Assembly: GCA_041654215.1 (NCBI GenBank)
Contig: JBAZDY010000001.1
Location: 1 to 58,624 of the forward strand
Direction of reading: 5' to 3'
Origin: Candidatus Omnitrophota bacterium
Lineage (GTDB): Bacteria; Omnitrophota; Gorgyraeia; Gygaellales; Profunditerraquicolaceae
DNA length: 58,624 nt
The position numbers were made by a program, and so were the translations under genes. Below are positions 153 through 4,100 of the stretch, in pieces (within the stretch, counting starts at the first letter, position 1; each line of letters starts with the position of its first letter). The notes under the pieces are model-generated. The model saw only the letters and a program-made list of their open reading frames with translations, was not told where the DNA came from and searched no databases.

Positions 153-1724
153 ATGCTCAATCTGGCCTTCATTTATCATATGCACCAGCCTTATTACGTC
201 AACCTGCTAAGCAGGGAGACGGAACTGCCCTGGGTAAGGCTCCACGGCATCAAGGATTACCTGGATATGGTGCAAATTCTCGCCAAATACCCGCGCGTGC
301 GGCAGACCTTCAACTTTGTTCCGTCGCTGCTGGAGCAGGTCGAGTCTTTCGTGGATTCCTCGGTAAAAGACAAGTTCATAGATATGACGATGCGTCCGGC
401 GGAAAGTCTCACGGACGGCGAAAAAAATTTCCTGCTGGAAAATTTCTTTATGATCAACGCGGAAAACTGCATAGCCGGCCACCCGCGTTACTACGAACTC
501 TTCCTTAAGAAACAGGGCGGCAGGCATTTCTCCGTCACGGATTACCGCGACCTGCAGATGTGGTTCAACCTCGCCTGGTTCGACCCGACGTTCCTGCAGG
601 AGCGGCCCGCGTTAAAAGCGCTTATAAAAAAGGGCCGCCATTTCGGGGAAGAAGATAAGAAAGTTATGATCGAGCAGCAGATGCTCATACTCGCGGAGAT
701 CATCCCCGCCTACCGCAAATTTTCCGAGAGCGGCCAGGTGGAGGTTATACTAAGTCCTTATTACCACCCCATTTTGCCTCTGCTTTACAACAGCAACATC
801 GCCAGAGAGGCCAATCATAAAGTATCCCTGCCGGCGCGCGCCTTTTCATATCCCGGCGACGCGCAGAGGCAAGTGTCCGAAGCGGTGCTTTTCTATACGC
901 GGCGTTTCGGCCGGCCGCCGGCCGGGATGTGGCCGTCCGAAGAGGCGGTCTGCGACCATATCCTGCCCATACTGATCAATAACGGCATCAAATGGATAGT
1001 AAGCGACGAAGCGATGCTTTTCCGCTCTTTCGGCCGCAAGAAAAGGGATACAGCGCTCCTCTACCGGATGCATAGCGCCGAAAGGGAGGAGGGAACCATC
1101 CATATGACTTTCCGCGACAGGAATCTTTCCGACCTGATCGGTTTCACTTACCATAAATGGGACCCGAAAGACGCGGTGAGCGATTTTATGCGCCATCTGG
1201 AAAACACGGCAGAGGCTTTCAAGGACAGGGATATCCTGGTAACAATAGCCATGGACGGGGAGAATGCCTGGGAGTATTACAAGAAAGACGGGCATCCGTT
1301 TCTTAACCTGCTTTATGAACGCCTGTCGGACAGCAAGATGATCAGGATGGTGACGGTGGAGGACTATCTGCGGCAGAATACTCCTGAGAGCAAGATACGC
1401 CGTCTGGCGGCCGGCTCCTGGATCTACGGGGAATTCGGAAAATGGATAGGGAACCAGTACAAGAATAAGGCCTGGGAATACCTGGCGGAGGCGAGAAAAG
1501 AGATGGAAACGTTCCTCTCTTCGGGAGCCGCGGAGGAAAAAACCAGAGCAGCCGCCTGGAAACAGATGATGATCTGCGAGGGCAGTGACTGGTTCTGGTG
1601 GTACGGAGATTACCAGCACGATTTCGACCGGCTTTACCGCCTGCATCTTTCCAACTTTTACCTCATCATCGGGAAGCAGCCGCCCGGCTATCTTAAACAT
1701 TCTCTCTATTCAAATCCCGGGTAA
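153..1724 (+). CDS. Glycoside hydrolase family 57 alpha-glucan enzyme (amylase, branching enzyme or glucanotransferase type)
   Basis: The N-terminus reads FIYHMHQPYY, followed by WVRLHGIKDYLDM. The length (523 aa) and layout are typical of GH57. Confidence 0.85.
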   Translation: MLNLAFIYHMHQPYYVNLLSRETELPWVRLHGIKDYLDMVQILAKYPRVRQTFNFVPSLLEQVESFVDSSVKDKFIDMTMRPAESLTDGEKNFLLENFFMINAENCIAGHPRYYELFLKKQGGRHFSVTDYRDLQMWFNLAWFDPTFLQERPALKALIKKGRHFGEEDKKVMIEQQMLILAEIIPAYRKFSESGQVEVILSPYYHPILPLLYNSNIAREANHKVSLPARAFSYPGDAQRQVSEAVLFYTRRFGRPPAGMWPSEEAVCDHILPILINNGIKWIVSDEAMLFRSFGRKKRDTALLYRMHSAEREEGTIHMTFRDRNLSDLIGFTYHKWDPKDAVSDFMRHLENTAEAFKDRDILVTIAMDGENAWEYYKKDGHPFLNLLYERLSDSKMIRMVTVEDYLRQNTPESKIRRLAAGSWIYGEFGKWIGNQYKNKAWEYLAEARKEMETFLSSGAAEEKTRAAAWKQMMICEGSDWFWWYGDYQHDFDRLYRLHLSNFYLIIGKQPPGYLKHSLYSNPG

Positions 1725-1761: not shown

Positions 1762-2340
1762 ATGCTGATTATGGAAAAAAAAGATATCTACGAACATCTG
1801 GCCGAGATTTATCTCGACGCCTCGTTAACCAAGAAGAAACCGCGCGCGCGCGGTTTCAAGAACGCCGCCGGCTGGATACTGGCAGGGGCGTTTCTGCTGG
1901 GCGGAGTCATCTTCGCTGTTTTTCTCCCGCCGCATCTGAAACCTCCGGTATCGGAAAATGCCTTATTGCTTTCCAGCAACAATCCTGTTAAGATAGCCTA
2001 TAATCTTTCCGCGGGCAGCAAGGAGTTATCCGAGTTGTCCCTTAACGGCGTTAACCTGCGCTCTTACAAGTCGTTGGTGCTCACAGTCAGATCAGACGCG
2101 CCGGCCGCTTCGATGCCGGCTATCGCCGTCGAGATACTGAATAAAACCGGAGAGAAAGGGCTCGTTTACATAAGGGATGCCGGAAGAAAATGGCGGCAAT
2201 ATGAAATACCGTTCTCCGATTTTAAACCGGGGTTGAGCGACTGGTCGCGCATCGAATCCCTGACATTCATAGTGGAAGAATGGAATGCCCCCATAAAAAA
2301 AGGGGTTGTTTATATCGATAACATAAGGTTCCTTCGCTGA
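1762..2340 (+). CDS. Membrane-anchored hypothetical protein with a possible beta-sandwich, carbohydrate-binding-like C-terminal domain
   Basis: One N-terminal TM helix (WILAGAFLLGGVIFAVFL). The C-terminus ends in VVYIDNIRF. It sits between the GH57 and ParA-CBM48 genes. Confidence 0.55.
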   Translation: MLIMEKKDIYEHLAEIYLDASLTKKKPRARGFKNAAGWILAGAFLLGGVIFAVFLPPHLKPPVSENALLLSSNNPVKIAYNLSAGSKELSELSLNGVNLRSYKSLVLTVRSDAPAASMPAIAVEILNKTGEKGLVYIRDAGRKWRQYEIPFSDFKPGLSDWSRIESLTFIVEEWNAPIKKGVVYIDNIRFLR

Positions 2341-2366: not shown

Positions 2367-3467
2367 ATGAGGATCATTTCGGTTACCAACCAGAAGGGCG
2401 GATGCGGCAAAACGACAACGGCTGTCAATCTTTCCGCGTGTCTGGCGGCAAACGGCAAGAAAGTGCTTTTAATAGATCTCGATCCCCAGGCGCACGCCAC
2501 CCTCGGGCTGAATATTCGCGCTGAAGCCAGCATTTACAACGTCCTTTCCAAGATATCCGTCAAGAAGACCCCGCTGGAGGGAATAATCAGGAAAGTGACG
2601 CCCGGTTTCGATATCGCGCCGTCTTCCATCGTGCTGAGCACCCTTGAGCAGGAATTGGCCGGCGAGATAGGAAGAGAATCGCGCCTTTGGGAAGTCCTGC
2701 AGGAGAATAAACAGCTTACCCGTTACGATTATCTGATTATAGATCTTCCGCCGAACCTCGGCATACTTACAGTCAACGCCATACGGGCCTCGTCCGAAAT
2801 AATAATCCCGGTGGAAGCCAGCCGCTTTTCGCTGGAGGGCGTCAACCAACTGCTGAAAATAATTGAGCTCATAAAGGACAGGCTTAACCACAATGTCTCT
2901 TACAAGATACTGGTGACAAACTTCGATTCCCGCCTGCGGCATTCCTTTTCCATGCTGGACCAGATAAAAGAATCTTTTAAGGGGAACGTCTTCGGCACCA
3001 TTATCCACGTGAACGTGAAACTCAAGGAAGCGCAGAGCTACGGGACGCATATTCTCAGCTACGATAAATACAGCCGGGGCGCCAAGGATTACTTCACCTT
3101 GTCCCGAGAGATGATATCGGGGAGCGTCAAGAATGAGACCGCGGCGGACAACAAGATGGCCTCGCTTGACAAACGTATGAAAGAGAGCATAAGCGAGAAT
3201 ATGCCGCGCCTCAAGGAAGTGGTATTCTCGATGTCTTTCCCGGAAGCCCAGGAAGTGCACGTGGCGGGGGATTTTAACCGCTGGCAGATCTCGGATAACA
3301 GCCGGATGAGCAAGAATAACGGAAAATGGTTCAAAAAGATGACGCTGGAGCCCGGCGCATACCACTACCGTTTCGTGGTGGACGGGACCTGGATGGATGA
3401 CCCGGAGAACCCGCGCAAGGAAACCAATCCTTTCGGGCAGACGAACTCTCTGCTTAACATCAAATAG
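2367..3467 (+). CDS. ParA/MinD-family ATPase fused to a C-terminal CBM48 (AMPK-beta-type) glycogen-binding domain
   Basis: Deviant Walker A (NQKGGCGKTTTAVNL) and LIDLDPQ at the N-terminus. The C-terminus reads VHVAGDFNRWQ...YHYRFVVDGTWMDDPENP...GQTNSLLNI, matching the CBM48 pattern. Confidence 0.85.
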   Translation: MRIISVTNQKGGCGKTTTAVNLSACLAANGKKVLLIDLDPQAHATLGLNIRAEASIYNVLSKISVKKTPLEGIIRKVTPGFDIAPSSIVLSTLEQELAGEIGRESRLWEVLQENKQLTRYDYLIIDLPPNLGILTVNAIRASSEIIIPVEASRFSLEGVNQLLKIIELIKDRLNHNVSYKILVTNFDSRLRHSFSMLDQIKESFKGNVFGTIIHVNVKLKEAQSYGTHILSYDKYSRGAKDYFTLSREMISGSVKNETAADNKMASLDKRMKESISENMPRLKEVVFSMSFPEAQEVHVAGDFNRWQISDNSRMSKNNGKWFKKMTLEPGAYHYRFVVDGTWMDDPENPRKETNPFGQTNSLLNIK

Positions 3468-3480
3468 AAAAGGTTAATCA

Positions 3481-3810
3481 ATGAGCGCGAAACCTGAACA
3501 GGAAAACGAGATACTGGAAGGCAAGATATACGCCGTTATGTCTTACTGGTTCTTTCTGTGTATTATCCCGTTCGTGCTGAAGAAAGACAATAAATTCGCG
3601 GTTTTTCACGGCCGCCAGGGCCTGGTCCTTTTCATTTTTCTCTCCGCCGGTTTCCTGTTCAGCATATTGCCTTTGATAGGAGCGCTTTTCTATAAAATGA
3701 CCCTGTTTATCTATATGTTATGCCTGCTTTTCGGCACCGTGCAATCCCTGCGCGGCAAATACAGCAGGATCCCGTTCATTTATCAGGTATCTCAGAAGAT
3801 CAATATTTAG
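3481..3810 (+). CDS. Small integral membrane protein (DUF4870-like)
   Basis: Three predicted TM helices and a HGRQGL motif after the first helix. The start is spaced tightly after the upstream stop. Confidence 0.55.
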   Translation: MSAKPEQENEILEGKIYAVMSYWFFLCIIPFVLKKDNKFAVFHGRQGLVLFIFLSAGFLFSILPLIGALFYKMTLFIYMLCLLFGTVQSLRGKYSRIPFIYQVSQKINI

Positions 3811-3914: not shown

Positions 3915-4100
3915 ATGAGACTTTCCGAGATCGAGAATAAAGCCAGGAAAATCGGAATCACAAACACCTGGAGGTATTCAAAGAAGGAATTAATCCGCAC
4001 CATCCAGAAACAGGAAGGTAATTTCGACTGTTTCGATACTCCTGCCAAACAAACCTGCGAGCAAACTCTATGTTGCTGGCGGACCGATTGCATAAAATAA
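3915..4100 (+). CDS. Small Rho_N/SAP-like protein with a Cys-rich tail
   Basis: SD gaaggaggg lies upstream. The N-terminus (LSEIENKARKIGITNTWRYSKKELIRTIQ) resembles the Rho N-terminal/SAP fold. The tail is CFDTPAKQTCEQTLCCWRTDC. Confidence 0.55.
   Translation: MRLSEIENKARKIGITNTWRYSKKELIRTIQKQEGNFDCFDTPAKQTCEQTLCCWRTDCIK

Follow-up and report, generated by a model that had tools for sequence, protein, structure and literature searches.

A conserved ParA-CBM48 fusion of Omnitrophota and its possible role in the organization of cytoplasmic glycogen

What might explain why a ParA-type ATPase carries a glycogen-binding type of module on its own C-terminus? Bacteria generally rely on ParA-type ATPases to place chromosomes, plasmids, carboxysomes, and chemoreceptor arrays, and in the known systems the activator of the ATPase sits on the cargo. 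To our knowledge, and as far as literature searches could establish, the placement and inheritance of glycogen in bacteria are essentially unstudied, and the literature on ParA and glycogen yielded nothing on positioning. The DNA considered here, a 58,624-nucleotide stretch of a Candidatus Omnitrophota contig that we refer to as the window, contains an open reading frame at 2367-3467 (+) with a stop-free translation of 366 aa. A preliminary description of the window had viewed this protein as a complete ParA ATPase joined to an AMPK-beta/CBM48 domain and had suggested that it positions or partitions glycogen granules or tethers glucan enzymes. All of its coordinates proved correct, and the features on which the argument depends are as follows.

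153..1724, + strand: GH57 alpha-glucan hydrolase, cytoplasmic (PF03065, E 2e-63)
1771..2340, + strand: partner membrane protein, here p192; 189 aa from the ATG at 1771, in an ORF that opens at 1762
1771-1860, + strand: cytosolic N-terminal tail of p192, an invariant helix (IYEHLAxIYLDAS) followed by poly-Lys
about 1861-1929, + strand: transmembrane (TM) helix of p192
about 1951-2337, + strand: CBM11-like beta jelly roll of p192, predicted to be periplasmic
2367..3131, + strand: Soj-type ParA ATPase domain of the fusion, residues 1-255 (Pfam, NCBIfam, and solved-structure matches)
3132..3218, + strand: flexible linker, residues 256-284 (low pLDDT, poor conservation)
3219..3467, + strand: AMPK-beta-type CBM48 and stop codon, residues 285-366 (Pfam, 4y0g alignment, pLDDT ~90)
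3481..3810, + strand: small multi-pass membrane protein of 109 aa, here p109 (weak DUF4870/TIC20-like match)
3915..4100, + strand: 61-aa Cys-rich protein that keeps this downstream position and strand in the window's family (f1)

Architecture and conservation of the fusion protein

Domain HMMs bear out both halves of the fusion. In the N-terminal half, Pfam AAA_31 matches residues 1-177 with an E-value of 1.2e-53, accompanied by CbiA (E 7e-22) and CBP_BcsQ (E 1.7e-9), and the domain falls among the ParA/RepA/MinD models of NCBIfam, none of which exceeds its equivalog cut-off. Its full-length counterpart among solved structures is 8ray, a 'ParA family protein' (E 3e-49, residues 2-250), and the Soj proteins of Thermus thermophilus (1wcv, E 1e-44; also 2bek) and Helicobacter pylori (6iub, E 7e-39) likewise align with the whole length of the ATPase domain. 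The deviant Walker A motif KGGCGKTT occupies residues 10-17 (coordinates 2394-2417), and its signature residues K10, G11, G12, K15, and T16 are invariant across 29 fusion orthologs (alignment A2), as are D37/D39 of Walker A' and D126 of Walker B. The cysteine of the Walker A motif (KGGCGKT) is invariant in all fusions, those of other phyla included, whereas canonical ParA proteins of Omnitrophota (n=5) have Thr or Val at that position. Arg189, in an FDSR motif, is kept in at least 90% of the same 29 orthologs and falls in the same column as the arginine of the 8ray FDSR and the Thermus Soj YDGR motifs; its equivalent in Bacillus subtilis Soj is R189, which that protein needs for non-specific DNA binding. 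The fusion thus shares with chromosomal ParA/Soj the deviant Walker A with its signature Lys, together with the FDSR arginine, but unlike chromosomal ParA/Soj it has no adjacent ParB, it continues into a linker and a CBM48, and it appears to be an additional paralog. No membrane-targeting segment, whether hydrophobic or amphipathic, was seen in the fusion.

The C-terminal domain is matched by AMPK1_CBM (PF16561) at residues 293-366 (E 3.5e-13, 50 bits against a cut-off of 26.8) and by CBM_48 (PF02922) at residues 283-342 (E 8e-6, 26.5 bits against a cut-off of 22.4). When residues 270-366 are compared with solved structures, the best matches are the carbohydrate-binding modules of AMPK beta-1 and beta-2 (4y0g, E 2.4e-8), followed by the N-terminal CBM48 of pullulanase and by the plant glucan phosphatases SEX4 and LSF1. 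In the 4y0g alignment W306, R335, W342, F356, and N360 fall on W99/100, K126, W133, L146, and N150 of AMPK-beta, W100, K126, W133, L146, and N150 being the glycogen-contact residues of that subunit. W306 and W342, the sugar-stacking Trp pair, are invariant in 31 of 31 diverse orthologs, and the remaining three contact positions vary among them only as R/K/Q, F/Y, and D/N. The glucan-binding residues of the fusion CBM48 are intact by this comparison, and binding itself is predicted.

In the AF2 model the protein consists of two confident domains (pLDDT ~90 for ATPase residues 1-255 and for the CBM) joined by a linker that is modeled as disordered, with pLDDT below 50 for residues 257-282. Linker length ranges from 30 to ~330 aa among orthologs, and the linker is often acidic. 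An assembly chimera was rejected as the source of the fusion because the homologs are full-length with both domains: this holds for all of the best homologs listed (120), and among the best 150 clusters at 50% identity most match the whole length of the profile or do so as two separate segments.

Both ends of the protein are conserved. Mean pairwise identity across the 31 orthologs is 54% for the ATPase, 16% for the linker, and 46% for the CBM48. Between the window and a genome of the same genus the corresponding dN/dS values are 0.044, 0.16, and 0.066, with 0.12 for the periplasmic jelly roll of the partner, all from a single species pair with few substitutions. These comparisons of coding sequence indicate that the ATPase and the CBM48 are both under strong purifying selection.

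The membrane partner and other neighboring genes

The preliminary description had placed a membrane-anchored, beta-sandwich-like protein between the fusion and a GH57 gene two genes upstream, and both genes are as it described them. The protein in between, p192, has a single TM helix and a jelly roll that matches CBM11. Its AF2 model (pLDDT 83) contains an N-terminal helix (residues 4-18), the TM helix (residues 32-51), and the beta jelly roll, for which Foldseek ranks CBM11 modules highest (1v0a, E 1e-7). The N-terminus is predicted to be cytosolic and the jelly roll periplasmic, because at least six Lys/Arg residues precede the TM helix. In 120 of 120 family members the protein has the motif IYEHLAxIYLDAS followed by poly-Lys, in which I, Y, H, L, A, and Y do not vary, and the cytosolic tail is the most conserved part of the protein (alignment A1); the jelly roll, at 25-42% identity, evolves faster than the rest. 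The p192 family comprises 278 homologs, and all those with a named organism come from Omnitrophota. No Pfam family covers p192, and searches of the partner proteins against Pfam and NCBIfam returned nothing save a sub-threshold CBM30 match for a homolog from family f11. Complex prediction with the ParA-CBM dimer, ATP, and residues 1-30 of the p192 tail scored 0.15 against a mark of 0.32, and a score below the mark speaks neither for nor against binding.

It is p192, and not GH57, that is the constant neighbor of the fusion: a p192-type membrane protein adjoins it on the upstream side in nine families of the class. In family f1, 9 of 12 loci have GH57 directly 5' of the partner gene; among the eight further families that share this operon layout, f21 alone has it there. 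An adjacent GH57 is missing from the other operon layouts and from the two loci examined from other phyla, and in most lineages the glycogen genes are not adjacent to the fusion.

The GH57 enzyme of the window probably acts on intracellular glycogen, because it lacks a signal peptide, retains its catalytic motifs (HQP, GQVEVxxSPYYHP, and DGEN), and has as its closest solved homolog a GH57 amylopullulanase (8zyi/9iht, E ~1e-82; PMC12106739). The host genome itself encodes a GlgA-type synthase, two GH57 genes, and a stand-alone 91-aa CBM48 protein, and from the presence of GlgA and two GH57 enzymes it is predicted to make glycogen. Of the 201 Omnitrophota genomes sampled, 186 have a GlgA match. 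Only one of the 15 GlgA-less genomes, which belong to related reduced lineages, carries the fusion, and many GlgA-positive families are without it. The pattern is weakly compatible with dependence on glycogen; co-occurrence with GlgA is a weak test, because GlgA is near-universal in the phylum and the GlgA-less genomes are related to one another.

Downstream of the fusion the order of genes is looser. The p109 gene follows directly in most, not all, of the loci with the partner layout, and in five f1 genomes a Lys-rich protein unrelated to p109 is found directly downstream of the fusion. A tblastn search recovers the 61-aa Cys-rich protein, at 54-93% identity, from 7 distinct genomes that account for 8 of 12 other f1 loci, and its membership of the module is uncertain. 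The loci examined are flanked by housekeeping genes, which encode a PurQ-type amidotransferase (GATase_5), an NlpB-like lipoprotein, a nitroreductase, UvrC, LptD, and TldD. PADLOC, run on the module and on the alternative partners described below, gave only P-loop-level matches, and none of the partners fell into a defense family. About 750 bp downstream the window contains a putative toxin-antitoxin islet.

Distribution, phylogeny, and paralogy

How widespread is the fusion, and how is it inherited? It is present in ~130 of 201 sampled Omnitrophota genomes (~65%), by hand count, and in all 18 sampled genomes of the window's family. Besides full-length matches in many families, numerous other hits covered just the ATPase within a longer ORF; of 13 such long or partial candidates that were fetched, 12 are the fusion, with a linker of 100-250 aa that is mostly acidic. 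The preliminary description had called for a survey of how widely the fusion occurs and whether it stays linked to glucan genes: the gene is widespread in the phylum and next to GH57 in families f1 and f21, but elsewhere the adjacency is not kept.

In a maximum-likelihood tree all fusions form one clade apart from canonical ParA, with a support of 100. Taxonomic families are mostly monophyletic inside this clade, the sole exception being a second copy in one genome (G014) that is nested in another family, and the tree suggests that inheritance in Omnitrophota has been mostly vertical. Beyond the phylum, the commonest phyla among the ParA+AMPK1_CBM clusters of the ESM Atlas are Krumholzibacteriota, Thermodesulfobacteriota, and Planctomycetota, and cluster names also put the fusion in Nitrospirota and Leptospirillia; two fusion loci from outside Omnitrophota were read.

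The genome of the same genus and four other relatives possess a canonical parA-parB operon besides the fusion, and in these relatives ParB adjoins the other, canonical ParA. In the window's own assembly, which is 86% complete, no ParB (ParB_N) and no second Soj-like gene were found, and the fusion is the only strong AAA_31 match; ParB_N was likewise absent from the four neighbors scanned (GH57, p192, p109, and the 5'-end ORF). Judged by its relatives, the fusion is an extra ParA paralog.

A second operon layout

The other large clade, comprising families f30 and f40 and a Leptospirillia genome, has a different layout, in which the fusion is followed by genes for two unannotated proteins. The alternative partner in those lineages is a ParA-like protein that lacks Walker A. 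Alignment of four f30 loci indicates that the first downstream protein starts K-K-L-K-R-G-L-K-D-V-S-x-L-F, which resembles the N-terminus of Omnitrophota ParB, M-E-K-K-A-L-G-K-G-L-x-A-L-I-P. The N-terminal peptide of ParB stimulates ParA ATPases. In these other lineages the fusion pairs with soluble partners, without a membrane protein.

Discussion

What does a ParA with a built-in glucan module do? We favor the view, with a probability of roughly 0.45, that the fusion is a dedicated orphan ParA that tethers or positions cytoplasmic glycogen under the control of an ATP switch. Glycogen binding, DNA binding, contact with the partner, and positioning by the fusion are all predicted from architecture, residue conservation, and gene linkage. 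In the proposed mechanism the Soj-like domain would, when bound to ATP, form a sandwich dimer that binds the nucleoid non-specifically, and the two CBM48 modules on their flexible linkers would hold glycogen particles, which would thereby be spread over or retained on the chromosome and divided between daughter cells. The partner would switch the ATPase by controlling hydrolysis, or relocate the fusion. In the window this role would fall to the upstream membrane protein, by way of the invariant helix and the poly-Lys stretch at its cytosolic N-terminus; other lineages would use the Walker-A-less ParA-like protein with its ParB-like N-terminal peptide. A tether fits better than a Brownian ratchet, because the cargo binder is fused to the ATPase, unlike in known ParA systems.

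A model confined to nucleoid and granule positioning neither needs nor explains the membrane location of p192 and its predicted periplasmic, lectin-like domain, and for this reason a membrane-anchoring or signal-coupling role has to be weighed. Here the nucleoid would play no part, and the protein would be a membrane-linked glucan organizer or signal coupler: as an organizer, the p192 tail would recruit the ParA-CBM48 dimer to the inner membrane and anchor glycogen or its enzymes at a defined site, for example a pole or septum; as a coupler, the CBM11-like domain would read a periplasmic glycan signal and pass it on to glycogen storage or mobilization. That nine families strictly pair the fusion with a single-pass membrane protein, that the cytosolic tail is invariant, and that a small membrane protein often lies downstream would all follow naturally. 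There is also a precedent in BcsQ, a ParA/MinD ATPase found at the membrane with polysaccharide machinery, and the fusion itself has the CBP_BcsQ match. A membrane role is nevertheless unlikely: it does not sit well with the soluble partners of the other lineages, which come without a membrane protein, or with retention of the Soj DNA-binding-type Arg, and the fusion has no membrane-targeting helix of its own, while the module holds neither a glycosyltransferase nor an exporter.

The architecture is already in the literature, in one preprint, and its function is disputed. 'Widespread Recruitment of ParA-like NTPases into Prokaryotic Immunity' (22 Oct 2026, bioRxiv 10.64898/2026.10.19.760177) describes a 'ParA-CBM' system in branch ConB5, a ParA with a C-terminal AMPK1_CBM, in two variants: in one, the gene upstream encodes a single-TM protein whose CBM is periplasmic; in the other, an extra inactive ParA and an inactive REase-like protein are present. 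Its phyletic survey is based on 8052 RefSeq genomes, and its authors regard the system as sporadic and the CBM as fast-diverging, and propose immune sensing (bioRxiv 10.64898/2026.10.19.760177). The preliminary description had taken the function to be unestablished; as far as experiment goes this stands, but the architecture and the two operon variants had been described. The first variant is the layout of the window, and the second we take to be that of family f30 and the Leptospirillia genome; neither the invariant tail of the membrane partner nor the ParB-like peptide of the other partner is mentioned in the passages of the preprint that were consulted.

Could the fusion, then, be part of an immune or conflict system? 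The CBM would sense a carbohydrate signal of infection or the depletion of glycogen, ParA would multimerize and block the invader, and p192 would contribute a further lectin sensor on the periplasmic side. The jelly roll of p192 does evolve faster than the rest, and agreement with the preprint extends to the exact architecture and to both operon variants, the second of which is said to include an inactive REase-like protein; the presumed toxin-antitoxin islet can be counted on the same side. What does not agree is the behavior of the fusion in Omnitrophota, where the data fit immune sensing poorly. The CBM48 is not fast-evolving there, with an identity close to that of the ATPase (46% versus 54%), a dN/dS of 0.066 in the one species pair, and fixed binding residues. 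Nor is the gene sporadic or set in defense islands: besides being frequent in the phylum, near-universal in several of its families, and present in every sampled f1 genome, it is mostly vertically inherited in stable synteny, among housekeeping neighbors (GH57, GATase_5, NlpB-like, nitroreductase, UvrC, and TldD), with partners that match no PADLOC defense family. RefSeq, from which the 8052 surveyed genomes were drawn, presumably holds few uncultured Omnitrophota, and outside Omnitrophota the distribution could yet prove sporadic. We regard an immune role as quite unlikely for this clade, and favor a housekeeping role in glycogen organization over immune sensing because in Omnitrophota the fusion behaves as a core gene under purifying selection.

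The dimer might instead set the state of glycogen and not its position. ParA dimerization is ATP-dependent, and a dimer with one CBM per monomer on a flexible linker could cross-link glycogen, gathering the particles in larger granules or shielding them from GH57 and phosphorylase until ATP falls. Like the CBM of AMPK-beta, to which it is analogous, it would then gate the reserve according to the energy state of the cell. The degrading GH57 enzyme adjacent to the module in two families would suit such a gate, but retention of a DNA-binding-type Arg would be left unexplained, as would the need for dedicated partners with activator-like peptides, and we consider cross-linking improbable. That the fusion is simply the chromosomal Soj/ParA of this organism plus an accessory domain is barely credible and was rejected: its being the sole strong AAA_31 match, with no ParB found, comes from an assembly only 86% complete, five relatives keep a separate canonical parA-parB operon besides the fusion, and the fusions form their own clade, distinct from canonical ParA, with no ParB gene adjacent.

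If glycogen tethering or positioning is correct, a ParA with a built-in glucan module would add polysaccharide reserves to the list of ParA cargoes and would represent a new design, in which the cargo binder is on the ATPase itself. A fuller claim is slightly less probable again: that ParA-CBM48 and its partner are the first known machine for positioning or partitioning a polysaccharide reserve, with the adaptor built into the ATPase, that this machine is ancient and part of the core in Omnitrophota and is shared by several other phyla, and that immune sensing is wrong for this clade. Immune sensing is the only published reading, and glycogen housekeeping competes with it; straightforward experiments could show whether the system represents a novel type of ParA cargo or an immune sensor.

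The proposed tether is reminiscent of several known systems, each of which it resembles in part. The AMPK beta-subunit CBM (4y0g, 1z0n, and 2f15) shares with the fusion the Trp pair, the K/R site, the aromatic-or-Leu site, and the N/D site, but it sits on a kinase scaffold, whereas the CBM48 of the fusion is mounted on a P-loop ATPase. McdA-McdB, which positions carboxysomes, and PpfA-TlpT, ParC-ParP, and PomXYZ each employ an orphan ParA-type ATPase for a non-DNA cytoplasmic cargo, as is proposed for the fusion. A further likeness may be that the probable regulator of the ATPase is a small partner whose N-terminal peptide is short and charged; these systems differ in having the adaptor on the cargo and ParA on the nucleoid, whereas the fusion has the cargo module in ParA and, in the window, the partner in the membrane. 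PhaM and PhaF tie PHA granules to the nucleoid for inheritance by daughter cells, which is close to the role envisaged here for glycogen, but they do so without an ATPase switch, with unrelated folds, and for a polyester instead of a glucan.

Clade-marker residues and the interdomain linker

What distinguishes the ATPase domain of the ParA-CBM48 fusion from the ParA of a separate parA-parB operon? Two residues do not vary in any of the fusions examined, those from other phyla among them: a cysteine within the Walker A motif (KGGCGKT) and a histidine, His43 (DPQAHAT).

2403-2405, Cys13 of the fusion, inside Walker A

Five canonical ParA proteins from Omnitrophota carry threonine or valine at the position equivalent to the Walker A cysteine, and the four whose printed sequence reaches the second site have asparagine at the His43 position. 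The Walker A cysteine and His43 are clade markers of the fusions, and a redox role is conceivable.

The linker between the ATPase and the CBM48 domain can be as long as approximately 330 residues, and at such length it is extremely acidic (L052, L039, and L044), with D/E-rich repeats such as EAADE[ED]DE. Possible roles for a long acidic linker of this kind are those of an entropic spacer or of a DNA mimic.

L052:8001-10049, long-linker fusion, Leptospirillia, GCA_046754085.1

Additional copies and other CBM48 proteins

One genome of Omnitrophota family f30 (G014) encodes two ParA-CBM48 proteins, at loci L026 (contig C48) and L027 (contig C27). While one copy clusters among the f30 sequences, the second is nested within family f11 (support 99), reflecting either lateral transfer or bin contamination. 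The genome containing the window (G000) also possesses, outside the window, a separate gene for a stand-alone CBM48 protein with intact FNSW and YKFFVDGNW motifs.

G000 contig C10:32583-32858, minus strand, AMPK1_CBM/CBM48 protein, 91 aa (PF16561, E 1e-15)

In the representative library, the very long proteins P0241 (1812 aa), P0280, P0287, and P0368 match the CBM48 portion of the fusion profile 7-18 times in tandem, and look like multi-CBM48 repeat proteins.

Genes downstream of the ParA-CBM module

Downstream of the module lies a small Cys-rich protein gene.

3915-4100, plus strand, 61-aa Cys-rich protein

It is found on the same strand downstream of the module in 8 of the 12 other loci of the window's own family, f1 (7 distinct genomes), with 54-93% identity, and may form one transcription unit with the module. 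In five f1 genomes, the gene directly 3' of the fusion is not that of the 109-aa membrane protein but a different one.

L004:2604-2999, alternative downstream gene
L005:2617-3087, the same
L007:1025-1444, the same
L009:1080-1508, the same
L011:2658-3089, the same

The encoded protein is very rich in lysine at its N-terminus. Its C-terminal domain is conserved (GxITHYFPHVQAAVIKL...IKIKGHTTDF...) and, by eye, appears to resemble an EF-Tu domain-2-like barrel.
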